DNA of 64,000 bases from a virus (taxonomy: Duplodnaviria > Caudoviricetes), in the IMG/VR virus record IMGVR_UViG_3300032327_001202, positions 1 through 64,000 of that record; one strand, written 5' to 3'. Made by a program: the position numbers and the translations under genes. Every line of letters starts with the position of its first letter. The first letter of the stretch is position 1. Shown here in pieces: positions 11,394 to 36,991 of the stretch. The notes beneath the pieces are model-generated. The model was not told where the DNA came from. It saw only the letters and a list, made by a program, of their open reading frames with translations, and made no database searches.

Positions 11394-12932
11394 CTAATCT
11401 TCTAATTCTTGTTCTAATTGTTTAATTTCATCCAAAATTTGCTTTAATTCCTCTTTTTTCTTCATCATTATGTTTTTATTCTTTTTCCTATCACTAAATA
11501 CATCTATTAACATATTTATAGTAGGTGAAACTACTTTTTTAAAAACACAACCATTATTGCAAATAACTACATTATCAAAATCAATTTCTGTACCATTAGT
11601 ACAGAAATTTTTATTATTTGGGTTTTGAATTCCTACAAAATTTTCAGGTGAAATGTAGAATTGCATCTGGGTTCTGGGATAGAGGCTTGAAAAGTCATAA
11701 CAAACACACCACTTGTTCATTCCAACAATTGGGTCTTTAACAAATCCACCTTCTATTGTTCCTTCGTCACTACCTTCTTTTTCATCATCTTTAAATATGA
11801 TAGCGTTCATTTGATCTTTAAACCTATGTCTTAAAACTCCTTCTGTAATTGCTAATGTACCTAAATTATTTTTTGCTTTAGATAATACATCAGTAATTTT
11901 TATTCTTGATAAAGAACTTATCGCATAAATAATAGAGATATAGTTTTTGGCATCATGTATTTTTTGAACTAACACGGAATCCACCGCATTATAATACATA
12001 AAAGTTTCAAAATCATCTTCATATAATTTTTGTAAAGAACCATTATATTTAATTTTCTCTAATCCAATTAATTTATTAGATACAAATTCTAATTTAGAGG
12101 ATTCTTTAATCTTAATTGTAGTATCACAGATTTCATATAACTGCATATAATCAAAAATCATCTTATGTGCAGGCATTTCATAATCTTTCAACCAAATTTT
12201 ATTCATTTTTTTGGTTGGAGATGCTACCGCAGGATCAATAGTTATTTCTTTACCATTAATTTTCTTTTTTAATTTTCTTGACCTATTAACTAAATAAATC
12301 CAGTCATAGTTAACAAAGTTCCATCCTGTCATAACAGACATTTTTGGAACCATCGTATTAAAAAAGTTATACATCATATCAAATTCTGAATCGTATTTAA
12401 CATACTTAAACTTATATGTTGTTCCTAATTTTTTAAAGTATTTATTAGTATTATCTAATATACGTGTTTGTGTTTCACTTGATAAATCTTTTAATCCTAA
12501 AAGGATTATTTTATCTTCATAAACAATAGATATTGAAAGAACTTTTGTAGCTGCGCCTTCTTTAACTACATTTCCTGCTTCATCTTTAATATCAGCGGCT
12601 TCAGGAAATCCATCTACTATTTCAGTTTCAATATCTATAAAATAGATATTGGGTAAATTAAATTCAAAGATTTCTTCTCTTTCATTTTCGGGAAGAGTGT
12701 CTAAAAATTCATAAATAGAATATCTATTTGGGTATGGTGAATCTACTAATTTAATAGATTTACCATCCCATGATTTATATTTTTGATCTTTTTCAGAATC
12801 TTCATCATCACAAACTACGTATTTTTTGGGATTTGGCCATTTATAGTATTTTAGTTTAATATTTCCTGACTTATCGACATAGGAAACTACTAAATTTTTT
12901 GTACTTGGTAGGTATTGAGTATCAACTAGCAT
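11394..12932 (-). CDS. Family-B DNA polymerase, N-terminal part (3'-5' exonuclease through motif A)
   Basis: FIDIET (ExoI), GWNFVNYDW (ExoII), YNAVDS (ExoIII), GGFV..P, YDFSSLYP. Ends in a coiled coil before motifs B and C. Confidence 0.9.
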   Translation of the reverse strand: MLVDTQYLPSTKNLVVSYVDKSGNIKLKYYKWPNPKKYVVCDDEDSEKDQKYKSWDGKSIKLVDSPYPNRYSIYEFLDTLPENEREEIFEFNLPNIYFIDIETEIVDGFPEAADIKDEAGNVVKEGAATKVLSISIVYEDKIILLGLKDLSSETQTRILDNTNKYFKKLGTTYKFKYVKYDSEFDMMYNFFNTMVPKMSVMTGWNFVNYDWIYLVNRSRKLKKKINGKEITIDPAVASPTKKMNKIWLKDYEMPAHKMIFDYMQLYEICDTTIKIKESSKLEFVSNKLIGLEKIKYNGSLQKLYEDDFETFMYYNAVDSVLVQKIHDAKNYISIIYAISSLSRIKITDVLSKAKNNLGTLAITEGVLRHRFKDQMNAIIFKDDEKEGSDEGTIEGGFVKDPIVGMNKWCVCYDFSSLYPRTQMQFYISPENFVGIQNPNNKNFCTNGTEIDFDNVVICNNGCVFKKVVSPTINMLIDVFSDRKKNKNIMMKKKEELKQILDEIKQLEQELED

Positions 12933-20975: not shown

Positions 20976-21069
20976 AATTAATATATATTATTTATATAAT
21001 ATAGTTTTTAAAAATTTTTTTTTGTTGAAAAATTTTTATATATTTGTATAAATAAAACAAAAAACAAAA

Positions 21070-22338
21070 ATGATAATCGAAAAAAATTTAGTGGAAATAA
21101 TCCAAAATATTGATAGTCCTTTAAGTAAAACTTTTCTAAAATTAGAAAAGTTAAATCTTACTTCTATAGTACAACTATCAAATAAAGATTGGCATTTCCA
21201 AGTAGTAAACGGTAAGAAAAAAGAAACCGTAAAAATGTTTAAATTTATCAATACTTATTTCCCAAATAAGTTTGAAAAAGATGAAGTTATTAGTTTTTGT
21301 GAAAAAATTATAACTAATTCTAAACCTAAACAAGTTACTACTAAAATAGAACCAAGACCATTTAAATATGAGCCTCTTAATGTAAGAGATACATTTATTT
21401 CATTAGTTACTGAAACTTATCCTCATGGATTTGAAGATGAAGTTTTAGCTTATCTTCCACAAGATCTAGAAATAGATGATTTTGGTAATTACTATAAAGT
21501 AATTGGTGATTCTGAAACAGTTTTTACGAGTCATTTAGATACTGCTTTAAGAGAAAAATCTGATATTAATTTATATTCATTCTTTGTTAAAGAACAAGAG
21601 TTTATTAAAACAGATGAAACAACTATATTAGGAGCTGATGATAAAGCCGGTGTTACTATCATGTTATATATGATGGCTAATAATGTTCCTGGTTTATACT
21701 ATTTCTTCTTAGGTGAAGAAAGAGGGGGTATTGGATCTAAAAAGGTTGCTAATGATTTTATAGACAATCCACTTTTAAAAGGTAAAAAAAGAATGGTATC
21801 TTTTGATAGAAAGAATTATTATTCTATCATAACATCACAATTAGGAGAAGCTTGTTGCTCAAATGAGTTTGCAGATGGATTATGTAATGAATTAAATAAA
21901 AATGGTTTGCATATGAAACCTGATGATACAGGTATCTTTACAGACTCTGCTAATTTTGTGGATTATATTCCTGAATGTACTAATATTTCTATTGGATATT
22001 TCAACGAGCACACTCATAAAGAGATTCAAAATATTTCTTATTTAGAAATATTGGCTAAGTGTTTAGTTGATGTAGATTGGGAAAACTTACCAACTGTTAG
22101 AAAGGCAGGTATTAGTGAACAATCTATAATTAAACATGGTGACAAAATTAAGAAGTTAAGAAAGTTAGGTATTAAAAATACGCTTCATATTAAGGAGTTA
22201 AAGGGTAATTTATATACTATCTTAGAGGTAGATAATAAAAATCCTATGGGAATATATGAAGATTTATCTCTTTTAAGAGAAACTTTAGGAAGTATAGATT
22301 TAAGATTTTACAATTCAAATATTTTAATAAAATTATAA
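21070..22338 (+). CDS. M28-like zinc peptidase, paralog of 15530-16639, with N-terminal extension
   Basis: ETYPHGFE, FTSHLD, LGADDKAG, FFLGEERG, SFDRK, TDSA, ISIGYFNEH. Confidence 0.8.
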   Translation: MIIEKNLVEIIQNIDSPLSKTFLKLEKLNLTSIVQLSNKDWHFQVVNGKKKETVKMFKFINTYFPNKFEKDEVISFCEKIITNSKPKQVTTKIEPRPFKYEPLNVRDTFISLVTETYPHGFEDEVLAYLPQDLEIDDFGNYYKVIGDSETVFTSHLDTALREKSDINLYSFFVKEQEFIKTDETTILGADDKAGVTIMLYMMANNVPGLYYFFLGEERGGIGSKKVANDFIDNPLLKGKKRMVSFDRKNYYSIITSQLGEACCSNEFADGLCNELNKNGLHMKPDDTGIFTDSANFVDYIPECTNISIGYFNEHTHKEIQNISYLEILAKCLVDVDWENLPTVRKAGISEQSIIKHGDKIKKLRKLGIKNTLHIKELKGNLYTILEVDNKNPMGIYEDLSLLRETLGSIDLRFYNSNILIKL

Positions 22339-22595
22339 TGCAAGAGACAGTAGATAAAATGGTAGATTACTTAAATGAAAATTTTTCAGAGGAGTTCTAC
22401 GTAGATTTTGAAGAAGATGAAAAAAATAAAGTAGTCTTTATTCAGTTTTTGATGGATAAAGTTATTAGCATTGATAATGCTATAGATTTTTTTAGCAGAA
22501 TCAATGATAGTAAAACTTTGTGTAAAAAACAAGAGTTTGAGTTATGGAAAACAAAGGAAGAAGAACCTATTATTCAAATAAGTTATATTATGTAA
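22338..22595 (+). CDS. Hypothetical protein
   Basis: 85-aa ORF coupled to the upstream stop codon. Confidence 0.55.
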   Translation: MQETVDKMVDYLNENFSEEFYVDFEEDEKNKVVFIQFLMDKVISIDNAIDFFSRINDSKTLCKKQEFELWKTKEEEPIIQISYIM

Positions 22596-22597
22596 TT

Positions 22598-22813
22598 ATG
22601 AGTACAATTAATGTAAAAATACAAACAAATAGAATTATTGGCGGTCTTAGAGATTGTATTAAATTATTTTTACAAGAAACTAAAGAAAAAGTATTAACTT
22701 TAGAAGTTTTAAAAAAATATAATTTTGAAGAAAAAGATTTATATGATATGAATCTAACTAAATCAAAAATAAGAGATTTTAAAATTAATAAAATATTAAA
22801 ATTATGCCAGTAG
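22598..22813 (+). CDS. Mini-protein of the RDxxIxxIL family; N-terminal segment unidentified
   Basis: MSTINVKIQTNRIIGGLRDCIK...LKKYNFEEKDLYDMNLTKSKIRDFKINKILK. Confidence 0.65.
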   Translation: MSTINVKIQTNRIIGGLRDCIKLFLQETKEKVLTLEVLKKYNFEEKDLYDMNLTKSKIRDFKINKILKLCQ

Positions 22814-23043
22814 TTTCATTAGATTTCGCAAGTTTATATCCTAGACCAATGGGTGATTTTTCTATGGGAGATGATTTTGATAAATCTACTAAGTATATAT
22901 TAGATAGAAATAAAGATCATGATTATGTAGATCTTTTATTACTTGAAAAGTATGGGTTGGTAACAAGTAGTTTATTTGATTTTCCTTTTGTTCAAACAAA
23001 GGTAAGAGATTATGAGATAAATAAAATATTAGATAGTATATGA
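22804..23043 (+). CDS. Mini-protein of the RDxxIxxIL family carrying a PolB motif-A-like segment
   Basis: Starts MPVVSLDFASLYPR; ends EKYGLVTSSLFDFPFVQTKVRDYEINKILDSI. Confidence 0.7.
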   Translation: MPVVSLDFASLYPRPMGDFSMGDDFDKSTKYILDRNKDHDYVDLLLLEKYGLVTSSLFDFPFVQTKVRDYEINKILDSI

Positions 23044-23294
23044 GTGATATAATCAGACAAGAACTTAAAAAAGTAATAAATAGTTTTTATGGAAGAAATC
23101 CCGATATAGAAACTGATTTTACTAAATCTATAAAGTTTTTATTATCTAAATTGGATGTTAAGTTTTTAACATACGAGTTTGTAGAAAAGATAAAAGATAA
23201 ATATGATATAGTATATACGGATTTGTCTGATTTTTCATTAGTTCAGATAAAGGTAAGGGATTATGAAATAAATAAAATCTTTAAAAGTATCTAA
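23040..23294 (+). CDS. Mini-protein of the RDxxIxxIL family carrying a PolB motif-B-like segment
   Basis: RQELKKVINSFYG near the N-terminus; ends DKYDIVYTDLSDFSLVQIKVRDYEINKIFKSI. Confidence 0.7.
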   Translation: MSDIIRQELKKVINSFYGRNPDIETDFTKSIKFLLSKLDVKFLTYEFVEKIKDKYDIVYTDLSDFSLVQIKVRDYEINKIFKSI

Positions 23295-23324
23295 ACAAAA
23301 AAAATTATTTTTTTATCACTTTAT

Positions 23325-23618
23325 ATGAAAAGTAAAAGTGATTTAAAGATAAAATATGGTGATAACATCATAGACGAAATAGAAAATAAATTAGCAAAAG
23401 AAATATCTGATAGTATAAACAAGGATATACTTAATAGTTTTAAGAAACCAAGTAAAATTTATCTACTTTCTTTAGTTGAAAATATTAATAATAAAGAAGG
23501 TGAGTTATTTATACTAATGGAAAAATATGGTATTATAGAAAATGATTTATATAGCCTTGAAATTGTTAAATCAAAAATAAGAGAATATAATATAGATTTA
23601 ATCTTAAAAAATAATTAA
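23325..23618 (+). CDS. Mini-protein of the RDxxIxxIL family carrying a major-capsid-like helix
   Basis: DLKIKYGDNIIDEIENKLAKEISDSINKDIL versus capsid DIKANTGMDIVQKMESILVNELSQTISKQII; ends KIREYNIDLILK. Confidence 0.7.
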   Translation: MKSKSDLKIKYGDNIIDEIENKLAKEISDSINKDILNSFKKPSKIYLLSLVENINNKEGELFILMEKYGIIENDLYSLEIVKSKIREYNIDLILKNN

Positions 23619-23646
23619 CTTTTTCAAAAATTTTTTGTATATTTGT

Positions 23647-23934
23647 ATGGAAGAAAAAAATATAAATTATAAATCTTATATAGAGGAACAAATAAGTAAA
23701 AGTATTTCTTATTCTGATTATATATGTGATGAGTTAGATAAAACTATAGATTATGCTGATTACTTAAGTGATAAACTTGAAAGTGAAGTATTTTTAGTAA
23801 AATTACACACTGATATGAATTTATCAGATATAATAGAAATGTATGATTTATCAGAAAAAGATCTTCATAAATTGAGTATAGTTAAGTTAAAAGTAAGAGA
23901 TTATAAAATAAATTTATTACTAAAACAAGATTAA
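23647..23934 (+). CDS. Mini-protein of the RDxxIxxIL family carrying two scaffold-repeat-like units
   Basis: SYIEEQISKSISYSDYICDELDKTIDYADYLSDKL versus scaffold EYIAENLDKNISYSEYIAENLDRNISYAEYLAENL; ends KVRDYKINLLLK. Confidence 0.7.
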   Translation: MEEKNINYKSYIEEQISKSISYSDYICDELDKTIDYADYLSDKLESEVFLVKLHTDMNLSDIIEMYDLSEKDLHKLSIVKLKVRDYKINLLLKQD

Positions 23935-23963
23935 AAAATATAATATATACATTACAAATACAT

Positions 23964-24322
23964 GGGGATGAAATGATTTAGATTCATGGAATTAATGGTA
24001 GAGATGCAAACATCGGATAATCCTAACCCGATTAATAAATTGGATTAAAGTCTAAACGACAAAACAAATACAGTAGCAAGCCGTGAAGAATTAGTAGCCG
24101 CTCTACAAAACAACATCTTAAAGGTAAACGAAGTAGCTTTTGCTTAATTGACAAAAACAAAAAGGTTTCCAAATAGTTAAAAATCTATTCAAAAATTTTC
24201 GGATTTGTTAGGGGTTCGTTAAAAACTAAATTAGTTTGTTATTTTATAAAAAAGTAACTACGTTTGTAAATGAGTTTCTATGATTAACCAGAGAAGACCC
24301 GAATTCGCCTTCGGCATCTCCA
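23964..24322 (+). ncRNA. ssrA: tmRNA (transfer-messenger RNA)
   Basis: 5' GGGGATG pairs with 3' CATCTCC-A (G3.U70 alanine identity). T-arm CCGAA-TTCGCC-TTCGG. Tag frame 24058-24147 follows a TAAAC-G resume context and ends ...NEVAFA*. About 360 nt; CCA not encoded. Confidence 0.88.
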
Positions 24323-24327
24323 CTAAT

Positions 24328-24353
24328 AAATACCCCTTGATTGGGGTATTTTT
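24328..24353 (+). terminator. Intrinsic terminator after ssrA
   Basis: AAATACCCC-TTGATT-GGGGTATTTTT. Confidence 0.8.
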
Positions 24354-24365
24354 AATTAAAATAAT

Positions 24366-24785
24366 ATGAATGATGATAACTTTGATAAATACCTAAAAAT
24401 TAGTAATTTATCTTTAATAATTAAAAAAATAGGAGATAGAATAGATTTTATTGATAAAAATAAAATCTATGAAAATATAGATGGGTGTATTCGAGAATCT
24501 AATATAGATTTTATATTAGAACAACAAAAAGATTTTTATTTTCTTGATATAGAATACTTCAGAGGAAGAAACCCATTAAATAATAATTATTATCCTATAA
24601 ATTATAAATTAATAGAAAGTGATATGATTAAAATAAAAAAATTTAATCAATTATCAAAATCTAAAATAATTATTGTAGGAAACATTACTATACAAAAATT
24701 ATATTATTCCGCAGACTTTATTGTAGAATATATTGATTCTAAACCAAAAATTATTAAAAATAGATATTTTCCAATTTATGATTAA
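24366..24785 (+). CDS. Hypothetical protein with an internal RxxxIDxIL motif
   Basis: Contains CIRESNIDFILE. Confidence 0.55.
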   Translation: MNDDNFDKYLKISNLSLIIKKIGDRIDFIDKNKIYENIDGCIRESNIDFILEQQKDFYFLDIEYFRGRNPLNNNYYPINYKLIESDMIKIKKFNQLSKSKIIIVGNITIQKLYYSADFIVEYIDSKPKIIKNRYFPIYD

Positions 24786-25104
24786 AGTAAGTTTAACCGC
24801 AAAAGAACAAATAATTAAATTAAAAAGTGAAGAACCTAATACAGGACAATACCTTAGAGTAGGGGTAAAGGGTGGAGGATGTAGTGGATTATCATACATC
24901 TTAGAATTTGATGATATATATGATAAAAAAATTGATGAACTTTTTGAAGATAATGATATAAAAATTATATGTGATAAAAGAAGTCTTCTTTATATATTTG
25001 GAACCGAACTAGTATTTTCAGGTGGTTTAAATGGTAAAGGATTCGAGTTTATCAATCCCAATGCAAGTAGAACTTGCTCTTGTGGAGAAAGTTTTTCAGT
25101 TTAA
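24778..25104 (+). CDS. iscA: A-type Fe-S cluster carrier (IscA/HesB family)
   Basis: LRVGVKGGGCSGLSY, LVFSGGLNGKGFEFINPNASRTCSCGESFSV; start placed at MIKV (24778). Confidence 0.92.
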   Translation: MIKVSLTAKEQIIKLKSEEPNTGQYLRVGVKGGGCSGLSYILEFDDIYDKKIDELFEDNDIKIICDKRSLLYIFGTELVFSGGLNGKGFEFINPNASRTCSCGESFSV

Positions 25105-25116
25105 AAAAATAATAAT

Positions 25117-25293
25117 ATGAACAAAGATAAAATAGATTTATATAATTTTTTAGTAGATAACCCTTACTTTTCTAAGGAATATGTTATGGGAAAGATATTT
25201 AATTTTTCTTTTTCTGATATACAATATATCAATAATTTAGAACTAATGGAAAAAAGAAATAAAAAAATAGATGATTTATTAAATGAAGATTAG
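25117..25293 (+). CDS. 58-aa mini-protein carrying a portal C-terminal-like segment plus RNKKIDDLL
   Basis: Not in the ORF track. Manual translation: MNKDKIDLYNFLVDNPYFSKEYVMGKIFNFSFSDIQYINNLELMEKRNKKIDDLLNED*. Confidence 0.65.
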   Translation: MNKDKIDLYNFLVDNPYFSKEYVMGKIFNFSFSDIQYINNLELMEKRNKKIDDLLNED

Positions 25294-25444
25294 TATTGAT
25301 GAAATAATAACTTATGATATAGTAGCATCTCCAGCACTTGGAAGTGCTAAACTAGTATATGATGAAGAGCTTAAACGAAAGAAAATATTAGAGGATATGG
25401 AGAGGAGAAATAAGATTTTAGATGAGTTATTAAAAGAGGATTAA
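25283..25444 (+). CDS. 53-aa mini-protein carrying a prohead-protease motif plus RNKILDELL
   Basis: Not in the ORF track. Manual translation: MKISIDEIITYDIVASPALGSAKLVYDEELKRKKILEDMERRNKILDELLKED*. Confidence 0.7.
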   Translation: MKISIDEIITYDIVASPALGSAKLVYDEELKRKKILEDMERRNKILDELLKED

Positions 25445-25465
25445 ATTAATTTAATCCTCTTTTTT
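25432..25465. terminator. Bidirectional terminator closing the ssrA-iscA-mini-ORF run
   Basis: AAAAGAGGATTAAA-TTAA-TTTAATCCTCTTTTTT. Confidence 0.75.
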
Positions 25466-25468
25466 ATT

Positions 25469-25774
25469 TTAATATTCTTTTAAATCTGAGATTTCTAAAT
25501 CATCTAATACAGATATTGCTTTATCTAATCCACTTTTCCAATTAGGCCATTTTCTTCTATGCATTTCAACTGCTTCTTCTAAATCATGATATAAATCATC
25601 ATTTCCAACTAAGTTATAATATTTATTTTTAAGTTTAGAAACTAATTGATATAAAACAGCATTATCAGTTTCATTTTTTAAGGCTTCAATTTCGGCTTTA
25701 AGTTCAGGAATAAACTCTTTTTTTAATTGCCAATTACCTTCAAATAAATGAAGATATTTTAATTTTTTTTCCAT
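25469..25774 (-). CDS. Hypothetical protein with KYLxLFE leader
   Basis: Starts MEKKLKYLHLFEG. Confidence 0.55.
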   Translation of the reverse strand: MEKKLKYLHLFEGNWQLKKEFIPELKAEIEALKNETDNAVLYQLVSKLKNKYYNLVGNDDLYHDLEEAVEMHRRKWPNWKSGLDKAISVLDDLEISDLKEY

Positions 25775-25776
25775 GT

Positions 25777-26445
25777 TTATTTTAATTTTTTATCAAGGAT
25801 TTTAACTAATCCTTCCCCTATTGTAAAATGTATATTTTTTAATACATCGCTTTTTATATTTAAAAAATCTTCTAAAAAAGTAAAGTTAAAATCATATTCA
25901 TATTCTTCATCTATTTTTACTTTTTTAATACTAAGTTTTAGTTCATAAGAATCATTTACACTAATAACAAAATCAAATTGTAAATCTTCACATTTTGTAA
26001 TCTTAAACTTAGGCTCGTATATAACATCAAATATAGTATAATCAGTTCTATTAACTGTTTTAAGATAATGATTTAAAAGTAATGCTGGTGTTTCAACAAA
26101 ATCTGATAATAATTGTAAATCTTTTCCAAAATTATTTGATTTTATAATCTTCTTTAATTTATATTCTAATTCATTTATATCTTTAAACAATTCTTTATGA
26201 TAAACACAATTTATATTATATAAGTAAGTAAAATAATTTTCTGTTATTTCAGTTTTTTCTAAATTTGTTTTAAATATAAATTTAGTATGTAAAACAAATG
26301 TTTCTTCTATTAATAAACTATGAATAGATATAACTAAATTATAATAATCATCATGTTTTTCATATACATTTTTATATGTTAAAAAACGTCCTTCTGTAAA
26401 AACGGATTTAAATAGTTCCTCTATTTCAGATATTTTAATTGCCAT
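25777..26445 (-). CDS. Hypothetical protein
   Basis: 222-aa ORF. Confidence 0.55.
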   Translation of the reverse strand: MAIKISEIEELFKSVFTEGRFLTYKNVYEKHDDYYNLVISIHSLLIEETFVLHTKFIFKTNLEKTEITENYFTYLYNINCVYHKELFKDINELEYKLKKIIKSNNFGKDLQLLSDFVETPALLLNHYLKTVNRTDYTIFDVIYEPKFKITKCEDLQFDFVISVNDSYELKLSIKKVKIDEEYEYDFNFTFLEDFLNIKSDVLKNIHFTIGEGLVKILDKKLK

Positions 26446-26446
26446 A

Positions 26447-27199
26447 TTATTTAAATTGTTTATCGTAAGTTTTCTTTCTTAGATTAATAAGTTTTTCTAT
26501 ATATTTATTTCTTCTCAATAACTTAAATACTAAGTTTTCTAATGAATACTCACCATCTTTTTCTATACCAGATTTTCTACCATCTTTAATTTTTTTCCAA
26601 ATTTTCTTCCATTTAAACTGAAAATTTTCATAATTAGCCACATTACCTGATTCTATTTCTAAATCATCTATACTATCCATTATATCTTCTGCTTTAAGTT
26701 TAATTAAATGATAATCAATTTCAAAATTCTTTCTATCTGGTTTTTGTACCCAATAGTTATATAGTATAGAATATACTCCACTATTTTTTCTTATCTTTTC
26801 TATGTCTGTTTGGCAGTTAAGTTCTAATTCATATCCTGCTATTATTATATCATGATCTTCATTCCATAATTTAGAATATGTTTTAAGATAATTTTGAACT
26901 AAATTTTCATCGTCATTAATTTCTGTAAAATCTAAAACTATATGTAAATCTATATCTGACCATTCTGACCAATTATAATTGGCTAATGAACCTGTGAATA
27001 TAATATCTTTAACCTTAAAATCTATTTTTAAATCATCTTTTATTTCATCAATAAAATCATTCCCTATTTGGAGTAATTCTTCTTTTACTTCATGATTTAA
27101 TTTAAATTTATGCCATATTTTCGTATTTAAATAATCTTTTAACTTAAATGATTTTAATGGAGTTAAATCCTTTTTATGGTCATTATATTTTTTTATCAT
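26447..27199 (-). CDS. Pol-beta-superfamily nucleotidyltransferase
   Basis: FTGSLANYNWSEWSDIDLHIV (GS...DxD) and YELELNCQ; start placed at MIKKYNDH. Confidence 0.75.
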   Translation of the reverse strand: MIKKYNDHKKDLTPLKSFKLKDYLNTKIWHKFKLNHEVKEELLQIGNDFIDEIKDDLKIDFKVKDIIFTGSLANYNWSEWSDIDLHIVLDFTEINDDENLVQNYLKTYSKLWNEDHDIIIAGYELELNCQTDIEKIRKNSGVYSILYNYWVQKPDRKNFEIDYHLIKLKAEDIMDSIDDLEIESGNVANYENFQFKWKKIWKKIKDGRKSGIEKDGEYSLENLVFKLLRRNKYIEKLINLRKKTYDKQFK

Positions 27200-27251
27200 A
27201 ACTAAAACTTTTTTGTGTATAAGTATATATATTAAAAAATAATACCTAATT

Positions 27252-27776
27252 ATGTTAGATGAAAAATTTCCCGATAGAAAAGAAATTAAATACACTTATC
27301 AGAAAAGTTTAATTGAATCTATTAAATCTATAGATCTTACCGACTATGATTATAATAAAGCAAATGATGAAGAATTTGCACCGAGAACTAAGATAACTCA
27401 AAAACAAAAAATTTATTTTTGGATTAGACTTTATTTAAATGAAGAAATAGAGATTGAACCAAATGATATAGTTAATATAGTTTATACTCCATTAAATGAA
27501 GTATTAGAAACTACTTTTGTTTGCTATTCAAAACCTTATTCATCAAAAGTTGATGTTGATAATTTAACTGAATATAATCCTGAAGATGATAAAAAAGTTT
27601 TATGTTTAATGGTAGATCAATCACGTATAAATGAAAATTCGGATGATATACCTTTTATCAGATCTTTATTTAAAATAAGTAAATATTATGAAGATAGAGT
27701 TATGAGAAAAGGAGAATTAAAATTCATTCTTGAGAAAAATGATACAGAATTAGAATATTTTAGTATTGGATTTTAA
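27252..27776 (+). CDS. Hypothetical protein
   Basis: 174-aa ORF followed by a hairpin at 27779-27811. Confidence 0.55.
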   Translation: MLDEKFPDRKEIKYTYQKSLIESIKSIDLTDYDYNKANDEEFAPRTKITQKQKIYFWIRLYLNEEIEIEPNDIVNIVYTPLNEVLETTFVCYSKPYSSKVDVDNLTEYNPEDDKKVLCLMVDQSRINENSDDIPFIRSLFKISKYYEDRVMRKGELKFILEKNDTELEYFSIGF

Positions 27777-27790
27777 TTAAAAAAGAGGAC

Positions 27791-28288
27791 TTATTTAGTC
27801 CTCTTTTTTTTACCTCTTTTATTTATTGGAGGTGTATAATTTGTTGATGTGGATTGGGTAGATGGCGTAGTGTAAGCATAATCAAAATAAAATAAATTAG
27901 GGCTGGAACCTGTTTTATATAATTCATGTTCTTCTTCTTTAAATTCCTCAAATTCTTTGTTTTCTAAAATAGAATCTAATTTTCTATCACGATTAATGGT
28001 AGCAACTTCTCGTTTAATTCTTTCTTTTTCCTCCTCTGAATTACCAAAACCTTTCATAGGGTTAACAGTAACTAAATCTATCCCTATTGTTTGAGCGGCT
28101 ATTTTTTTAGCAATTGGTAATAAACTTGGAAAAGATTCATTTGACTGTGTCCCTACTAATGTAGTATCCATATTTATTTCATTTTTTAAATGAAGATTAG
28201 CATATTCGGTCATCCAGTTATTTACTACAGATTGTGTAGATGATACATGATTCAAATCCCATTTATCTATTTTTATATTTGGTTTCAT
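27791..28288 (-). CDS. Short paralog of the major capsid N-terminal region with an RDRKLDSIL motif
   Basis: NWMTEYANLHLKNE and SLLPIAKKIAAQTIGIDLVTVNP versus capsid SWMAEYAEYHAINE and NLLPVAMKIAAQTIGLDLVAVKP. Confidence 0.75.
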   Translation of the reverse strand: MKPNIKIDKWDLNHVSSTQSVVNNWMTEYANLHLKNEINMDTTLVGTQSNESFPSLLPIAKKIAAQTIGIDLVTVNPMKGFGNSEEEKERIKREVATINRDRKLDSILENKEFEEFKEEEHELYKTGSSPNLFYFDYAYTTPSTQSTSTNYTPPINKRGKKKRTK

Positions 28289-28291
28289 ATT

Positions 28292-29395
28292 TTATATTAT
28301 TTTTTCTTCTAAAATTATTTCTATATTTTGTTCATAAGAAATTTTTAATAATTCTTTTTTATTTTCCAAAACCCAATTATCTTTTAATTGGTCATTTCTT
28401 TTTACAACCTCAAATTGCTCTTCACCACCAAAAAATTCTCTTGGCTCATAATGTTGAATACCATTAAACTCTATAAATAACCCCTTTTTAGGTAAATAAA
28501 AATCAAATCTATATGTAGAATTACCTATTTTTTGTTTATATTCTTTAATGTATTCTATACCTTTTATATCTAACCAATTCTTTATTTGACGTTCTCCTTT
28601 TGATGAAGAACAATTAGGACAACCACATTTATGATGTATAATATAATTAGGTTTAGCACTCCAAATATAATCACATACTTTACATTTATGTTTTAAATAA
28701 AAAAGAGACCCTATATATTTTTCACCATCTACTAATTCTATATCATTTGGAAGAAGAGATAAATATTTTGTATGAGAAAATTTTCTACCAGAACAAGATG
28801 AACACCCTAATACTATATTAGCTATATTTTTAGGCGTAGTGTTAAATTTCTCACCACATTTTAAACATTCAAAATCATGATTTTCTCTAAAATTAGTGTA
28901 ATTTCCTATTAATTTTATATTCCTTTCTATTAATAATTCATTAAATTTATTAATATAGTTATATGATTTTTTGCTTAATAAATTTTTATCCTTTTTACAT
29001 TCACAAATATATTTTGTGATTTGTTTAGGTGTTTTATTTATTATTTCATTACATATTTTACATTCAAAATTTATATACGTATTAGTGTTAATATAATTAT
29101 CTACTCTAATAAAATCTAAATCTTTTATTCTTAAATCAAATTCTTCATTTGTTATTTTTCTACCTAATGAAGAAAAACTATCGTTTGTTTCTTTTTTACA
29201 TTCACATAATGTTCGATTATATAATTTAGGCTTTTTCATACTTTTTTTACCACATAACTTACATTCAAATTCTATTGGTGTTTCTGCATTAATATAATTA
29301 CCGATTCTTATATAATCAGAATCTTTAATTTTTAAATCAAAATCATTATTAGTAAATGCTTTTGGTCCTGACTTTTCGTTCTTTTTTATATACAT
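28292..29395 (-). CDS. Homing-endonuclease-like protein: Zn-ribbon repeats plus C-terminal Vsr-like PD-(D/E)xK domain
   Basis: Repeated F.CxxC units; SKGERQI...RFDFYLP...IEFNGIQHY...LLKISY. Confidence 0.75.
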   Translation of the reverse strand: MYIKKNEKSGPKAFTNNDFDLKIKDSDYIRIGNYINAETPIEFECKLCGKKSMKKPKLYNRTLCECKKETNDSFSSLGRKITNEEFDLRIKDLDFIRVDNYINTNTYINFECKICNEIINKTPKQITKYICECKKDKNLLSKKSYNYINKFNELLIERNIKLIGNYTNFRENHDFECLKCGEKFNTTPKNIANIVLGCSSCSGRKFSHTKYLSLLPNDIELVDGEKYIGSLFYLKHKCKVCDYIWSAKPNYIIHHKCGCPNCSSSKGERQIKNWLDIKGIEYIKEYKQKIGNSTYRFDFYLPKKGLFIEFNGIQHYEPREFFGGEEQFEVVKRNDQLKDNWVLENKKELLKISYEQNIEIILEEKII

Positions 29396-29446
29396 AATTT
29401 ATATATTTTCTTATTATATTTTTATTTCATGAATAGTTCATGAAAT

Positions 29447-29476
29447 AAAAAAACCTCCCTTGAGGGGAGGTTTTTT
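29447..29476 (-). terminator. Intrinsic terminator after the major capsid gene
   Basis: AAAAAAACCTCCC-TTGAG-GGGAGGTTTTTT. Confidence 0.8.
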
Positions 29477-29494
29477 GTATTCTAATTTATTATA

Positions 29495-31237
29495 TTAGTT
29501 AAGGTAGCCATTAGCATCATTAACGTAGATAGTCATAAATTGTTTTTGTGGGAAGAAACCTAATTCAGCCACAGCATATCTTGATCTTAAAATCATTCTT
29601 GGAGCAAATGTTGCTTCTGACATGATTGAGATAGATTGTGCCATGAGGAATGGCACGAAACAGATACCTGGTTGATCAGGATTGTTTTTACGTCCGATTA
29701 AGATTCTGTTGTCATTGTATTTCATGTAAGGATCTACGTAGATAGTGATATCACCGATTTGACCTACAGGGTACATTTGACCGTTTGTGTTTAATTTAGA
29801 TTTAAGTGGGTTAATTGTGTAACCTGCAACATCCATTAAAGCTGCTGCTAATCCACCATTTGTTACCGCATATTGTGCTGGTCCAACACGTCCTTCAGTT
29901 GCGATGTAGTTAGAAGCATGTACCATTTTAGTGATAAGCTTTCTTTGTACAGCGTGTGTAGTTTCACCACCTGGTCCTGCTTGAACATAAAGAGTATCTA
30001 AGTCAAATATAGTTTGTCCAGAGATGTTAGCGTTAGCATTTAAACCTGTGTATAAAGGAGCAGTTTGTCTGTTTATATTACCCATATCAAATACTTTAGC
30101 AATAATTTGCTTAGAGATAGTTTGAGAAAGTTCGTTTACAAGGATTGATTCCATTTTTTGAACGATATCCATACCAGTGTTAGCTTTGATATCTTCAATT
30201 TCTGTTCTACGTAATGCAGAACTTACTTCTACTGTACCAACTGTAATTGATTTAGAAGAAATTTTTGGTCCAATTGCACCTGCATATGTGCTTTCTTCTT
30301 CTTGACGAGCCATTGGGTATTGCCCACCATTACCATTAAAGTTTGTAACATATCCTGGTAATTGATCTTCAAGAGCAGATACTAAGCTTATGCTTATAGC
30401 ATTTGAGTTAGTAGACTGTCCAAATAAGTAGTTAATTTCTGAAACCATTGAACCACCTGCTGTAGCACCTGTAGTTGAAACGTTAAATGAGTTGTTTGCT
30501 TGATTTAAGCCATAAACAACACCACCACCATATGCACCACCTGCCGCATTTGATTCTTTGTAAGCTCTGAATATAGGCTGTCCATCAATACGAGAGAAAC
30601 CTAAGAACTCTAAGTAACCAAATTTGTTAGTTGGTTCAGTTGTAGTACTAGATACTGAAGTTGATGCAGTGAAACCTGTCCAAATTCTTGTACCAAATGC
30701 TAAACCACCTTGGTTTTGTTGAATACCTGCAGTAGTTAAAGCGCTATTAATAGCTGTATTTAATGAAGCACTTAAACCTGTAGAAGTTAAAGTAGCATTC
30801 CAAGCAATTTTGAATACTTGAGGTTTTGTGTTAAAGTTTGAAAGATTTAAATCGTCATATTGAAAATCAACATAAACTAAATCAATCTTTGGACCTGGAG
30901 TTGGCTTTACAGCTACTAAATCAAGACCAATTGTTTGTGCAGCAATTTTCATAGCTACTGGTAATAGGTTTTGTCCTAAATCACCTGAACCTATGTTTGA
31001 TGAACCATAGTTTGCACCAATTGTTGTACCTGGGTAAGTACCAACTTGTGGAGCTAAAACAGCACCTAAACCACCTGTAGAAGCATTAAGGTAAGCGTTT
31101 TCGTTTATTGCATGGTATTCAGCATATTCTGCCATCCATGAATATTTTTCTCTGTCCTCTTTGTTAACACCAATGTTTTCTAAAATTGGAGTCCATTTGT
31201 TAAGAGCTTTTTGTAAGTCAATTCTAACTTGTGACAT
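29495..31237 (-). CDS. Major capsid protein, T4 gp23-like
   Basis: KWTPIL, AAQTIGLDLVAVKP, ELSQTISKQII, YVDPY, PFL, PRMILRSRYA; strong codon bias; 580 aa with an internal insertion. Confidence 0.9.
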   Translation of the reverse strand: MSQVRIDLQKALNKWTPILENIGVNKEDREKYSWMAEYAEYHAINENAYLNASTGGLGAVLAPQVGTYPGTTIGANYGSSNIGSGDLGQNLLPVAMKIAAQTIGLDLVAVKPTPGPKIDLVYVDFQYDDLNLSNFNTKPQVFKIAWNATLTSTGLSASLNTAINSALTTAGIQQNQGGLAFGTRIWTGFTASTSVSSTTTEPTNKFGYLEFLGFSRIDGQPIFRAYKESNAAGGAYGGGVVYGLNQANNSFNVSTTGATAGGSMVSEINYLFGQSTNSNAISISLVSALEDQLPGYVTNFNGNGGQYPMARQEEESTYAGAIGPKISSKSITVGTVEVSSALRRTEIEDIKANTGMDIVQKMESILVNELSQTISKQIIAKVFDMGNINRQTAPLYTGLNANANISGQTIFDLDTLYVQAGPGGETTHAVQRKLITKMVHASNYIATEGRVGPAQYAVTNGGLAAALMDVAGYTINPLKSKLNTNGQMYPVGQIGDITIYVDPYMKYNDNRILIGRKNNPDQPGICFVPFLMAQSISIMSEATFAPRMILRSRYAVAELGFFPQKQFMTIYVNDANGYLN

Positions 31238-31261
31238 ATTTTTTAATTTTTTTTATTAATC

Positions 31262-31272
31262 TATATATTAAA
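31262..31272 (-). promoter_or_regulatory. Putative late promoter motif TTT(A/T)ATATATA
   Basis: TTTAATATATA upstream of the capsid gene. The same motif precedes portal (36979-36989), gp2/gp4 (palindrome 38226-38239), sheath, gp25, prohead protease and others. Confidence 0.55.
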
Positions 31273-31317
31273 TGCTAAAAGTCTCTTTTTGCTATTTTTA
31301 TAGATTTGTTTGTTTTT

Positions 31318-33522
31318 TTAAATGTTTTTGAATCTTTCTAAGATTGATTTGAAATCTGAATCAGATAGTTTATCTTCTTGTATTAAACTGTCATGAGAAA
31401 TCATTTTTTTAGTTGATTCATTCTTTTTTAAGTTTCTAGTTAACCAAAAATGTTCAATTTTAGCTTCTGAATCCAATTCAGGATATAGTTTAGCTTGTGA
31501 AAGAATTGATTTTTTAGAACTTTCATTTGTTACTTCCCAAATTGATTTTATATTTTCTGGCATCAATCTGATTAGTCTTTCTTCTAATGATTCATTTTTA
31601 ATAGAAAGTGCTTCTTGTATTAATTTTATAACTTCTGAACTTGTGAAATAACTCTTTTCGTTTATGTAAAGTTTTACTTGTTCTTGCTCTTCGTTTGTTA
31701 AGCTATAATAGCTATCAACTTGAGACTTGTTTAAAAATTTTAAGAAATGTAGATCGTTTGTTTCAGAAACTTTACGTTTTCTAGCTTCTTCGATTAATAA
31801 ATCTATTTTTTTACTTAAATCTGAATCTGTATTTTTATTTTCTAAGTAGTCTTCGTCTGCTTTAGATACATCTGGTAAACCTTCTAATTTTACTTCTTTA
31901 CCTAATAATTCATCTTTGAAATCTGCTTCATTTGGAACCGCAGTATCAACTTTTTGTTCTTCTGGTAATTCAACTTCTGTTAATTCAGTATAATCTAAAG
32001 AAACTGGAGTTGCTTCATCAGCTTCACCCGCTTTTTCAACACCATCTTCACCATGAAGTTCATCCTCACCACCTTCTAAATAGTTATCTGATTTATTATC
32101 AACATCATTTTCACCAAAACCATATTCTTCTAAAGTAGGAATAAGATTTGATTCATTACTTTCAAATAATTTAGTACCATTAACTTTTTCAGAAATTAAA
32201 CCTGTATAAGATACAGCTTTATCTAAGTTTTCAGCAATGTATTGAGAATAAGAAATGTTATCATCAAGGTGTTCTGCTATATATTCAGAATATTTAATAT
32301 TACCTTCTAAGTTTTCAGCGATATACTCAGAATAAGCAATATTACCATCTAAGTTTTCAGCTAAATATTCAGCATAAGAAATATTTCTATCTAAGTTTTC
32401 AGCTAAGTATTCTGCATAAGAAATATTCTTATCAACATTCTCAGCAATATATTCAGAATAAGAAATGTTTTTGTCTAAATTTTCAGCGATGTATTCAGAG
32501 TAAGAAATGTTTCTATCTAAATTTTCAGCGATGTATTCAGAATAAGAAATGTTCTTATCTAAGTTTTCAGCAATATATTCTGCATAAGCGATATTTTTAT
32601 CTAAGTTTTCAGCAACATATTCAGAATATTTAATTGATTTGTTTAAGTTTTCAACTAAATAATCGTTATGTTCGATTAATCTATCAGTTGTATCTTTAAG
32701 AGATTTGTTCTCAGAAACAACAACTTGAATTTTTTCTGCTAAATAATCTAAGTATTTAACAACTTGAGAATTAGTTTTATTTAATTCTTCATAGTAGTTT
32801 AAAAGTTTTTCTAATTTAACTGGTTCTAAATTACCAGATTTAAGAGCACTTTTAACTTCTTTTTTAGTTGCAGCAATTTCATTAACTATATATTTCGAAT
32901 AGTCTGACAATTGATCTTTCGTTACGAATTCATTTTTGTTCATGTTAAATAATTCATTTATTTTTGATTCATTTGATACTTCATATATTCTGAAGTTAGC
33001 ATCATTTGAATAATTTAAAGACTCATTTATAGAAGACATTCTCGCAGAAGCAAATCCCGGATCTGCAACTATATCATAAGTAAATAATTTTTTTAGTGAT
33101 ACTGTACCATCAGCTTCTGTAATACCAGCAGCTCTTGAAGATACAAATATAGGGCAACCATCATCAACTAAAGCCTTAGCTTCTTTTCCCCAATAGGTAT
33201 TTAATAATTTAATTTGTCCTTCAACTACATTTTTTTCTTTAACATAATATGCGGTTTTGATTAAATGGGATGCACGGGATAGTGAAGTGTCAAAGACGTC
33301 GGGGTGGTCAAACTCACCATAAACTACTCCCATAGTAGAAATCCTGCTATTAAGTTCTTCTAAACAAGGCAAGAATCTTTCAGGAGTATATACTCTTTCA
33401 TTCCTATTTTTAACCATAAACTCAGTAAAAGTACCTCCTAAAAGATAATCTTTTCTAGCATCTACACCTTCGTTCATTTTTAAAGGATTTGTATTATTTT
33501 CAATGATTAATACTGGCTTCAT
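31318..33522 (-). CDS. Prohead protease (T4 gp21-like) fused to a scaffold/core-like coiled-coil region
   Basis: KNRNERVY, YGEFDHP, FVSSRAAG, TYDIVADPGFASA, followed by 14-aa repeats and an acidic region. Confidence 0.88.
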   Translation of the reverse strand: MKPVLIIENNTNPLKMNEGVDARKDYLLGGTFTEFMVKNRNERVYTPERFLPCLEELNSRISTMGVVYGEFDHPDVFDTSLSRASHLIKTAYYVKEKNVVEGQIKLLNTYWGKEAKALVDDGCPIFVSSRAAGITEADGTVSLKKLFTYDIVADPGFASARMSSINESLNYSNDANFRIYEVSNESKINELFNMNKNEFVTKDQLSDYSKYIVNEIAATKKEVKSALKSGNLEPVKLEKLLNYYEELNKTNSQVVKYLDYLAEKIQVVVSENKSLKDTTDRLIEHNDYLVENLNKSIKYSEYVAENLDKNIAYAEYIAENLDKNISYSEYIAENLDRNISYSEYIAENLDKNISYSEYIAENVDKNISYAEYLAENLDRNISYAEYLAENLDGNIAYSEYIAENLEGNIKYSEYIAEHLDDNISYSQYIAENLDKAVSYTGLISEKVNGTKLFESNESNLIPTLEEYGFGENDVDNKSDNYLEGGEDELHGEDGVEKAGEADEATPVSLDYTELTEVELPEEQKVDTAVPNEADFKDELLGKEVKLEGLPDVSKADEDYLENKNTDSDLSKKIDLLIEEARKRKVSETNDLHFLKFLNKSQVDSYYSLTNEEQEQVKLYINEKSYFTSSEVIKLIQEALSIKNESLEERLIRLMPENIKSIWEVTNESSKKSILSQAKLYPELDSEAKIEHFWLTRNLKKNESTKKMISHDSLIQEDKLSDSDFKSILERFKNI
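32194..32655 (-). repeat. About 11 tandem in-frame 42-nt repeats (14-aa unit AENLDKNISYSEYI)
   Basis: Read directly from the protein and the DNA; degenerate at synonymous positions. Confidence 0.9.
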
Positions 33523-33658
33523 TAATTTTTAAGTTATTTTGTAGTATTATATATAAAAAAATAATACCTCCTTTTTTCTAAAAAAATCAATTATTTTTAT
33601 GACCTGGATTTTTTATAGAAAAACTTAAAACTTAAAATTTTTTTAATATATATTATCT

Positions 33659-34063
33659 ATGTATAAAATTAATTTTGGTGATGAGAAAGTTTTTTTAAAT
33701 TATTTAAAAGGTTTTGAAAATAAGTACCATAAAAGACAAAAAGTATTAAATGAGATTTTAGAAATTAATGATAAAGATGATGAAGCATTAAGCTACTGGG
33801 ATTTTACTGATAATAGTATAATATATGGTCAATTTTTTGATAAAAGATATGATAAAGATACATCTTTAAGTAATGTTTCACATTATGTTAAAAACATAGA
33901 AAAAATAAATGGGGAATATTTCGCAGAAATAAAAATATTAACTACTTATTGGGGTATAGCATTATTAGATTTAATTAATGCTGGAATAAAATTTCATTTA
34001 GAATGTGTCTATCATACTTATGAAAATAAAAAAATAATTAGACTAGATATAAATGATTATTAG
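33659..34063 (+). CDS. Truncated, probably inactive prohead-protease paralog
   Basis: IYGQFFDKRYDKDTSLSNVSH...EIKILTTYWG versus VYGEFDHPDVFDTSLSRASH...QIKLLNTYWG. Lacks the HP His and the SSR Ser; contains RQKVLNEIL. Confidence 0.65.
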   Translation: MYKINFGDEKVFLNYLKGFENKYHKRQKVLNEILEINDKDDEALSYWDFTDNSIIYGQFFDKRYDKDTSLSNVSHYVKNIEKINGEYFAEIKILTTYWGIALLDLINAGIKFHLECVYHTYENKKIIRLDINDY

Positions 34064-36955: not shown

Positions 36956-36991
36956 AAATATATATTTTTTTTATTGAATATATATTAAATA

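Follow-up and report, generated by a model that had tools for sequence, protein, structure and literature searches.

A conserved C-terminal tag on small proteins of huge phages, including fragments of their own core genes

We analysed a 64,000-nucleotide (nt) stretch of DNA from a virus of the Caudoviricetes, positions 1 to 64,000 of IMG/VR record IMGVR_UViG_3300032327_001202, hereafter the window. It forms the initial part of a contig that is 82.8 kb long and has 24% G+C; counts given for the contig use all 82.8 kb. A preliminary description had listed ten small open reading frames (ORFs) between positions 22598 and 34063 that share a short motif, and had read them as a variable part, often resembling a piece of an essential phage protein, joined to a constant module. 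Each of the ten ORFs is found, with its motif, at the position given there. We show that they belong to a large set of small proteins that carry this motif, here called the tag, and we weigh what the tag and the protein fragments joined to it might do.

Results

Ten tagged ORFs at one locus

The tagged ORFs are listed below. Lengths are in amino acids (aa), PolB stands for family B DNA polymerase, and the shortest ORFs are called minis.

22598..22813, + strand: mini 1, 71 aa from ATG 22598 (the ORF opens at 22544); long tail ending RDFKINKIL
22804..23043, + strand: mini 2, 79 aa; begins VVSLDFASLYPR, which is PolB motif A-like; long tail RDYEINKIL; its start overlaps the stop of mini 1
23040..23294, + strand: mini 3, 84 aa; KKVINSFYG, PolB motif B-like at motif level only; long tail RDYEINKIF
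23325..23618, + strand: mini 4, 97 aa; residues 5-42 resemble capsid helix aa 339-376; long tail REYNIDLIL
23635..23934, + strand: mini 5, 99 aa from TTG or 95 aa from ATG 23647; about three copies of a 14-aa scaffold repeat; long tail RDYKINLLL
24366..24785, + strand: ORF of 139 aa; internal motif RESNIDFIL at aa 43-51
25117..25293, + strand: mini of 58 aa; residues 13-36 weakly resemble the portal C-terminus; tail RNKKIDDLL
25283..25444, + strand: mini of 53 aa; residues 3-24 (ITYDIVASPALGSAKL) resemble protease aa 141-162; tail RNKILDELL
27791..28288, − strand: ORF of 165 aa; capsid N-terminal paralog with NRDRKLDSIL inside an insertion of ~50 aa; at the T4 gene 24 position
33659..34063, + strand: ORF of 134 aa; paralog of protease aa 65-123, with RQKVLNEIL near its N-terminus

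The first five of these (22598, 22804, 23040, 23325 and 23647) are true paralogs. They share a module of ~35 aa that ends in the tag, as the preliminary description had proposed, and the corresponding 92 nt of DNA are 64-72% identical among the five. These minis are tightly packed in one operon, behind a metallopeptidase-like gene and a strongly constrained 85-aa gene:

21070..22595, + strand: operon head, metallopeptidase-like gene (422 aa; PHROG 4191 peptidase, E = 4.4e-66) and 85-aa gene (22338-22595); ratio of nonsynonymous to synonymous substitution rates (dN/dS) 0.05-0.13

The array is kept in the syntenic relatives that we compared (L119, L120 and L121), with gain and loss: there is an extra mini in L119 and L120, and the first mini is absent in L121. 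The start of mini 1 at 22598 is supported by its ortholog at L119:9804-10010 (68 aa). A comparison of the array DNA with 50,697 phage records returned spurious AT-rich matches only.

The tag is enriched in one subclade of huge phages

The window carries a T4-like head module (portal, protease-scaffold fusion and capsid) together with ribonucleotide reductase, terminase and a split PolB. Its capsid protein is 61% identical to those of two uncultured huge phages, LR756502.1 (642 kb; W01 below) and LR745206.1 (635 kb; W02), 50% identical to that of LR756504.1, and 28% identical to those of Prevotella Lak megaphages. A closer relative, with a gene order identical to that of the window, is a 635,887-bp contig from the Joint Genome Institute (JGI).

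We scored the tag with the regular expression R[DENQK]xx[ILV][DNKE]x[ILV][ILFV], which was widened after the data were seen, against a null of shuffled proteins. In the contig, 14 ORFs match where 1.4 are expected, and nine matches lie no more than 12 residues from the C-terminus (0.09 expected). The motif is far more frequent than chance would give. A C-terminal tag is found in 95 of 993 ORFs of LR756502.1 (~1 expected) and in 103 of 964 ORFs of LR745206.1 (expectation not computed), and the first 400 kb of LR756504.1 hold 39 copies of a variant, R-K-x-[IK]-I-x-[DE]-L-[LI], against 0.6 expected. Lak-B1 has no C-terminal tag (0.3 expected), and LR756500.1 has one (0.6 expected). Relative to shuffles of matched composition, four genomes thus show a 10- to 100-fold excess of the tag, and the two tagless relatives are equally AT-rich. 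It is carried by ~10% of ORFs within one subclade of huge phages related to Lak megaphages.

The logo built from 207 instances is K-[SQ]-x-[IL]-R-[DE]-x-K-[IL]-[ND]-x-[IL]-L, typically followed by zero to three residues, commonly one, and then the stop codon. Lysine occupies position 4 in 136 of the 207, and positions -4, -3 and -1 are conserved too, although the regular expression demanded none of these. The residues after the final leucine are mostly K, N, D or G (169 of 188 cases). Within the motif, synonymous codon choice mostly equals genome-wide usage, with some skew at positions 7-9, nearest the stop. When lysine was required at position 4, a six-frame search gave 80 hits, of which 76 were in frame within called genes, four lay outside genes and none was out of frame. 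Because synonymous codons are near background, out-of-frame matches are lacking and positions that were never required are conserved, we conclude from these patterns that the tag is constrained at the protein level.

The tag is modelled as a helix near the C-terminus. In the AlphaFold2 model of the 27791 product (predicted local distance difference test score, pLDDT, 59), the motif lies within the sole confident element, a helix at residues 84-108. The model of mini 2 (pLDDT 51) likewise has a helical tail. Beyond the tag helix, confidence is low over most of either model.

Other roles for such a peptide were weighed, and the first two below were rejected. A DNA or RNA signal, such as a promoter, a terminator or the end of a mobile element, is contradicted by codons mostly at background and by the lack of out-of-frame matches. 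A membrane-targeting helix or secretion signal does not fit, as a hydrophobic stretch is found in only 7% of carriers and a helical-wheel reading places the invariant arginine on the hydrophobic face. A clamp-binding tail is improbable: it would need an aromatic pair, which is absent, and ~100 clamp partners per genome are implausible. The spacing does fit that of the PIP-box, Q-x-x-[ILM]-x-x-[FY]-[FY], but in place of the aromatic pair the tag has I or L in 207 of 207 instances and then L, I or F, and Q occurs in three of 207. The tag also lacks the non-polar extreme C-terminus (e.g., LAA) by which ClpX or ClpA recognise ssrA-type and Clp degrons. In T4, the capsid-targeting sequence is an N-terminal peptide of ~10 aa that the prohead protease cuts off at L/I-x-E; the tag lies at the C-terminus or within the protein, with no L/I-x-E site after it. 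Our literature search turned up no account of such a tag or of decoys made from capsid fragments.

Tagged proteins are diverse. By their N-terminal parts, the 207 proteins fall into 174 clusters. Among 108 of them compared with Pfam, the only match was DUF6011, in two proteins, and no named PHROG family was matched by the same 108. Their median length is 114 aa, and they are soluble, with a transmembrane-looking stretch in only 7%. Their genes sit in tightly packed operons and evolve fast.

Some tagged ORFs are fragments of core phage genes

The genes from which the fragments could derive are also in the window:

29495..31237, − strand: major capsid protein of gp23 type (Pfam PF07068, E = 3.3e-27); source family of the 27791 and 23325 fragments
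31318..33522, − strand: prohead protease fused to a scaffold of 14-aa repeats (PHROG 207 head maturation protease, E = 4.8e-29; repeats visible in the translation); source family for 23635, 25283 and 33659
35222..36955, − strand: portal (Pfam Portal_T4, E = 4.6e-54); claimed source of 25117
11394..12932, − strand: N-terminal piece of PolB, with the exonuclease domain and motif A (aa 409-425)

Fragments were scored with hidden Markov models (HMMs) built from the clade's own proteins, with E-values set for 1888 small ORFs. The preliminary description had claimed eight resemblances to core proteins. Five of them stand: the matches to the scaffold repeat (23635), the capsid N-terminus (27791) and the protease (33659) are strong, and those of 25283 to the protease and 23325 to the capsid helix are good. 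Those to PolB motif A and the portal are weak, and PolB motif B is matched at motif level only. On this evidence, at least five of the ten ORFs are old, conserved copies of capsid, scaffold and protease pieces.

Among the strong cases, mini 5 matches the scaffold repeat with a Smith-Waterman score of 130 (null maximum 86) and an HMM E-value of 1.6e-11. It has a homolog at W02:460435-460686, and its L120 ortholog is split in two. The 33659 ORF matches the protease with a Smith-Waterman score of 86 (p < 0.01) and E = 1.7e-5. It reads YGQFFDKR where the resident protease has YGEFDHPD, and it has no SSR; we take the His (GE.DHP) and Ser (SSR) motifs of the protease to be catalytic. Thus 33659 does not qualify as a T4-type prohead protease, and neither does 25283, whose similarity spans only 22 residues. 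LR756502.1 and LR745206.1 have positional analogs of 33659 between their portal and protease genes, and these carry RDILINNIL and RDIKLNTLL.

The 27791 ORF matches the clade capsid HMM at E = 1.3e-7 over its N-terminal ~110 aa; it has no Pfam hit and so cannot be placed in PF07068. Its orthologs at W02:291407-291880 (55% identity, 2.5e-38) and W01:315773-316270 (42%, 1.6e-28) match far better than any capsid (only ~1e-7), and the duplication is for this reason dated as ancient, older than the split of the compared genomes. The family has 39 cluster representatives of 105-168 aa. Its best conserved stretch is NRDRKI(D/E)SI, which is nearly invariant, and LLPIA..AQTIG.DLV.V.P is fixed in 26 aligned members of the 39 clusters. 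The capsid-like block of the family aligns with T4 gp23 aa ~92-121.

A weak match to the 27791 family (E = 0.004) also lies in Lak-B1 (MK250020.1), at 371564-371920 on the − strand, with two in-frame TAG codons that may reflect stop-codon recoding. As Lak-B1 is tagless, the capsid N-terminal paralog may predate the tag.

The good matches are shorter. Mini 4 matches Pfam Gp23 at E = 0.003 and PHROG 138 (major head) at E = 0.0026; with the clade capsid HMM its E-value is 0.16, and orthologs reach 0.0012 and 0.0085. Its match to PF07068 scores 17.4 bits over 36 residues only, below the gathering cut-off of 24.4, so that family membership cannot be assigned. By sequence, 27791 and 23325 are thus fragments of the capsid family and not capsid proteins. 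The 25283 mini matches the protease with a Smith-Waterman score of 60 (shuffle p < 0.01) and E = 0.016 (aa 141-163), and all four of its orthologs match the same protease segment (E = 0.0045-0.07). Its family comprises six cluster representatives, all of 53 aa, with 83-96% identity and dN/dS of 0.11-0.25. A 53-aa analog in LR745206.1 (L002:8737-8898) combines DLVADPGF with RKQKINKIL.

The remaining resemblances are less secure. Mini 2 shares 10 of 16 residues with resident PolB aa 409-425. The HMM of the PolB N-terminal piece gives weak E-values of 0.57-1.2, yet it is the best match for all four orthologs. The family has 10 cluster representatives of 76-79 aa each, at 76-97% identity, that keep DF.SLYPR, and one ortholog is labelled ‘DNA polymerase family B’ by JGI. 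For mini 3, neither the clade HMMs nor all 360 protein families gave profile support for PolB motif B. Its orthologs in L119 and L120 read KIITNGIYG, the C-terminal PolB piece of the relatives reads KLVLNGSYG, and we estimate ~0.45 chance matches to the motif B expression per genome. Neither 22804 nor 23040 qualifies as a family B polymerase, as they offer only DF.SLYP and K...NS.YG, respectively, and have no Pfam match at E ≤ 1. The preliminary description had noted that motif B could not be aligned within the window, and the reason is that PolB is split after motif A, with its C-terminal piece outside the contig. In relatives, this piece, with motifs B and C, is encoded on its own at a distance of over 100 kb (W01:120483-121907).

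The 25117 mini matches the PHROG portal family at E = 0.01 and the clade portal HMM at E = 1.6-4.7, and the portal is not its top match among the 360 families; its orthologs are 68-90% identical. Against all 360 families, 23040 and 25117 are both at noise level. The N-terminal part of mini 1 has no significant source among the same families, and the 24366 ORF has no Pfam match. Orthologs of 24366 retain the motif (e.g., RDFNIDSIL in L119 and L120), with dN/dS of 0.3-0.4.

Across four genomes, HMMs of all large proteins recovered 12 capsid, five protease-scaffold and one portal fragment among small ORFs. No other conserved core-gene family yields as many fragments as capsid or protease-scaffold, though several were also recovered for each of a few paralog families with multiple copies. 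Further examples in LR756502.1 are a tagged 61-aa piece of the capsid C-terminus and a portal fragment beside a capsid-like gene. Among short ORFs (≤100 aa), fragments are tagged in six of nine cases, against 135 of 819 short ORFs overall (Fisher p = 0.001). The pairing of fragment and tag that the preliminary description proposed is therefore real, and the tag is not specific to fragments. Split-intein or extein remnants were rejected as the origin of the fragments, as no intein blocks flank them.

Two minis of LR745206.1 resemble the PolB-like minis of the array. A tagged 79-aa mini at 83154-83393 (L048), with the motif A-like DFASLYP, matches the ribonucleotide reductase profile (E = 0.003), and a ‘motif B’ look-alike is a capsid fragment. 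On these sequences, the look-alikes warn against motif-level matching; the L048 mini may represent either another class of core-gene fragment or one more such warning.

Minis are real but fast-evolving genes

In syntenic relatives, mini orthologs keep their length at 76-97% identity. By the Nei-Gojobori method, dN/dS is 0.1-1.0 for minis and 0.05-0.25 for neighbouring genes. By this measure the minis change quickly under weak constraint, and part of the copies may be in decay.

Compared with the capsids and proteases of three genomes, the fragments show the same distance to each, with no preference for the resident proteins, which argues against recent capture from, or aiming at, one competitor. 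This agrees with the view of the preliminary description that the copies are not fresh duplications, as does the far closer match of 27791 to its orthologs than to any capsid.

Tagged genes differ in their promoter motifs

Upstream regions of the window hold two classes of promoter-like motif (e.g., 31238-31317, 33523-33658, 36956-36991 and 20976-21069). One, of TTWATATATA type, is placed 20-40 nt ahead of the capsid, protease and portal genes and of many others, structural and replication genes among them. In this first class, the TATATATA-type motif, which precedes capsid, portal and protease, is found upstream of 18 of 130 tagged units against 291 of 691 others (p = 1.3e-10); it is also present upstream of 33659. 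Conversely, TAnnTTTG precedes 35 of 130 tagged units against 88 of 691 others (p = 1.4e-4). This sequence is the −7 box of Bacteroidota (PMC12632263). Judged by their upstream motifs, most tagged genes form a separate promoter class. They are probably expressed early, by the polymerase of the host; the motifs point to a host among the Bacteroidota and to a middle or late promoter specific to the phage.

Clp machinery and a candidate tmRNA

LR756502.1 encodes, at 440544-442667 (L033:544-2667), a 707-aa ClpC-type double-ring ATPase with AAA, UVR, AAA_2 and D2-small domains and no Clp_N, and several ClpP-like genes (e.g., 364437-365003, L029). The ClpC-type ATPase is present in three tag-positive genomes and absent from two tag-negative ones, and ClpP is present in all five; the ATPase of LR756504.1, which has the variant tag, is only 43% identical. 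Small ORFs copy the UVR motif of ClpC, e.g., the tagged LR756502.1 320919-321134. When we scanned metagenomes with the ClpC-type protein, the results were swamped by relatives of 50-71% identity, which we took to be cellular ClpC.

Directly after the mini array, positions 23964-24325 (+ strand) hold a candidate for a divergent transfer-messenger RNA (tmRNA). It matches RF00023 over its full length at 22.2 bits (gathering threshold 47; E = 4.2e-7 in a 501-base search), with acceptor pairing that includes, by eye, a G:U at position 3, and a long tag frame that ends ...EVAFA. ARAGORN and Rfam at gathering thresholds returned no tmRNA or RNA match.

Neighbouring genes

The genome is rich in mobile elements, including homing endonucleases, split genes and inteins. 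Two endonuclease genes lie next to genes discussed above:

10347-11342, − strand: GIY-YIG endonuclease gene, after the N-terminal piece of PolB
28292-29395, − strand: homing-endonuclease gene between the capsid gene and 27791; present in L119 and L121, absent in L120

By this distribution, the 28292-29395 gene is a recent mobile insertion: its absence from the relative L120 marks it as the later arrival. The order capsid-endonuclease-27791 mirrors T4 23-segD-24. An origin of 27791 through the endonuclease was rejected, as the L120 ortholog directly follows the capsid gene without any endonuclease and the family is far older than the insertion.

Two helicase genes on the − strand are apparently split by inteins. 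One is Rad3/XPD-like (9540-10331, 8655-9536 and 7424-8689), with an endonuclease-like free-standing ORF between its halves, and the other is DnaB-like (5893-6618 and 4747-5856). In both, the upstream ORF ends in the N-terminal part of an intein, and the downstream ORF opens with the C-terminal part (...HN, then C/S).

The metallopeptidase-like gene at the operon head (21070-22338, + strand) has a paralog at 15530-16639 (− strand), with 53% identity over 247 aa. Both resemble metallopeptidases of M20/M28/M42 type and are recognised by PHROG 4191 and not by Pfam. A gene for iron-sulfur cluster biogenesis (24733-25104, + strand; PF01521 in orthologs) sits amid the tagged minis, and its start overlaps the end of the 24366 ORF.

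Discussion

A proposed docking tag on many small proteins

With moderate confidence, we read the tag as a docking signal on a repertoire of small proteins, among which the fragment minis are real tagged genes. The face formed by the invariant arginine and I/L at +4, +7 and +8 would fit one common receptor. The variable N-terminal part would then be the working or bait module, which in the fragment minis would mimic the interface of a phage core protein. Transcription of the tagged genes would probably be early and depend on the RNA polymerase of the host, a member of the Bacteroidota. The architecture of a variable part and a constant module, which the preliminary description drew from ten ORFs, thus stands and extends to relatives; a family dedicated to mimicry does not, as the tag sits on ~100 unrelated proteins per genome.

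C-terminal peptides are a classical docking route onto Clp machines. The best candidate receptor, offered as a lead only, is the phage ClpC-type unfoldase that lacks the N-domain, working with ClpP, an assignment that we consider unlikely. Docking to it could have either of two outcomes: early proteins would be destroyed on schedule, so that mimics of head proteins are cleared before assembly, or the binding partner of the bait would be delivered for unfolding. Extended to the whole repertoire, each genome's ~100 early small proteins would combine a bait with a C-terminal tether to phage ClpC/ClpP, making a programmable set of degraders; capsid, scaffold, protease, portal and polymerase baits would capture host factors or sensors, or the minis would be cleared before head assembly. 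We rate this extended version as quite improbable. Of the three functions floated in the preliminary description (decoy, dominant-negative inhibitor and recruiter), decoys for sensors and recruiters of a common partner would both fit a separate promoter class and phage Clp machinery.

Several points weigh against a docking tag on early proteins. The motif is internal, not C-terminal, in three conserved families (27791, 24366 and 33659). That the fragments act as mimics is pure inference and, in our view, less likely than not. Some pairs of minis have dN/dS near 1, one ortholog is split, and minis are gained and lost between close relatives. The ‘early’ assignment draws on promoter-like motifs in very AT-rich DNA, where the excess of TAnnTTTG is modest (27% vs 13%), and the five-mini operon has both promoter-like motifs, upstream of 21070. 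As for the candidate receptor, a ClpC-type gene would have to be assumed for the lineage of the window, of which the contig covers only 82.8 kb. The co-occurrence of ClpC and tag amounts to one phylogenetic split, and many other genes must share this pattern. The tag is also charged, unlike known Clp degrons.

Alternative explanations

The minis could instead be decoys for host sensors: made early, they would bind the immune sensors of capsid, portal, protease and polymerase and block them. We regard this as unlikely, although the promoter class differs from that of late genes, the minis evolve fast and are gained and lost among close relatives, and the block of 27791 that aligns with T4 gp23 falls by position in the Gol region. 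Gol is a 29-residue peptide of gp23, from the first quarter of the capsid protein and its most conserved region, that is sufficient for EF-Tu binding and for triggering the Lit protease (PMC3014915). The 27791 block aligns to the part of gp23 that contains Gol, but Gol lies within the full capsid protein and not in a separate gene, and the expected effect of a Gol-like peptide on a Lit-type system is activation, not blocking. Families of Avs sensors do sense the capsid, portal and DNA polymerase classes (10.64898/2026.01.04.697583). However, the same 2026 preprint reports that these sensors recognise whole core folds, which makes Avs decoying less likely; pieces of 20-45 aa, predicted to be largely unstructured, would be poor mimics of such folds. 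Moreover, ~100 non-mimic proteins carry the tag as well, so that it is no component of a purpose-built decoy system. Nor do the fragments lie nearer to the resident proteins than to their counterparts in other clade members.

A second alternative is that the fragment minis are accessory or internal head proteins that co-assemble with the prohead core through their copied capsid, scaffold, protease and portal interfaces, and that the tag targets them to the head or loads them as cargo. The great majority of fragments derive from head proteins, and a mini of scaffold repeats could pair with the scaffold coiled coil. With 27791 at the gene 24 position and 33659 between portal and protease, the layout matches T4 20-67-68-21-22-23-segD-24, and the TATATATA-type motif lies upstream of 33659. 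However, tagged units mostly lack the head-gene promoter motif, ~100 tagged proteins per genome would be much cargo, and fragments like PolB, ribonucleotide reductase and the ClpC UVR motif are tagged as well. The tag is also unlike the T4 targeting sequence, which is N-terminal and cleaved, and unlike encapsulin cargo peptides. We therefore consider a head function to be decidedly unlikely.

Gene birth without function is a third alternative, and an improbable one: the tail DNA would act as a recombination anchor that captures random pieces, and the fragment would do nothing specific; pieces of conserved genes would merely be those whose source is still evident. This would be in keeping with the 64-72% DNA identity of the five tails, with a genome full of homing endonucleases and split genes, and with the high dN/dS, the gain and loss of minis and the one split ortholog; most tagged proteins also have no recognisable source. 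Against it, sources are strongly biased to three head-protein families out of 47 conserved in at least three genomes. What the minis retain are the most conserved blocks, with key residues fixed while the flanks drift, as in DF.SLYPR (10 clusters) and LLPIA..AQTIG.DLV.V.P. The genomes compared separated long after the 27791 family arose, and the endonuclease beside 27791, which is missing in L120, did not create the fragment.

Chance, i.e., a generic low-complexity helix in an AT-rich genome with noise for fragment matches, is scarcely credible. Among the eight fragments claimed, 23040 and 25117 do not rise above noise when compared with all families, and the ‘motif B’ and ‘motif A’ minis of LR745206.1 turned out to be a capsid fragment and a match to ribonucleotide reductase, but the motif exceeds shuffles 10- to 100-fold in four genomes while being absent from two equally AT-rich relatives, and three fragments reach E-values of 1e-5 to 1e-11, so that chance is already refuted for the motif and for at least five fragments.

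Comparison with known systems

Read as a docking tag, the motif invites comparison with the adaptor tethers and degrons of Clp machines. The ClpX-binding tail of SspB and the ssrA tag dock varied proteins onto one AAA+ machine. Like these, the tag is a short peptide at the extreme C-terminus after a linker, and the phage has a ClpC-type protein, ClpP and the putative tmRNA. Unlike them, it shows no sequence likeness, is charged, has an invariant arginine and no LAA-like end, is carried by ~100 proteins per genome and is internal in three families.

The ankyrin/PRANC (F-box-like) proteins of poxviruses and the RxLR and PEXEL proteins are similar in design, as large, fast-evolving repertoires in which variable N-terminal modules are joined to a short constant motif that leads to one machine. 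These systems are eukaryotic, with other motifs and machinery, and the analogy is one of design only. We know of no comparable phage repertoire.

The prohead accessories of T4 (the targeting sequence of internal proteins, gp67, gp68, Inh and gp24) are likewise small proteins encoded around the portal-protease-scaffold-capsid block; they join the prohead, as the minis may do. The closest parallel is gp24, like 27791 a capsid paralog just after an endonuclease gene, but gp24 is full-length (427 aa) and 27791 is a 165-aa N-terminal piece. The T4 proteins carry no shared tag, and the T4 targeting sequence is N-terminal and cleaved. PIP-box and T4-type clamp tails resemble the tag in being C-terminal and in their spacing (polar-x-x-[ILM]-x-x-hydrophobic-hydrophobic), and differ in the aromatic pair that the tag is without; the C-terminal PolB piece of the relatives ends in another tail, which does look clamp-binding (…VMDIFGGSGF).

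Significance

If the tag serves for docking, it would mark ~10% of the proteome in some of the largest known phages, a fraction that is almost entirely unannotated, and a single peptide would provide a handle for the receptor and for every member of the repertoire. Tagged mini-genes made from capsid, scaffold, protease and possibly polymerase pieces would be a new use by viruses of their own core proteins. The fragment minis could be interface mimics that serve counter-defence, competition between phages or the control of assembly. Even if the fragments are functionless, they would show how small genes can originate in giant phages, through captured pieces joined to a constant module.

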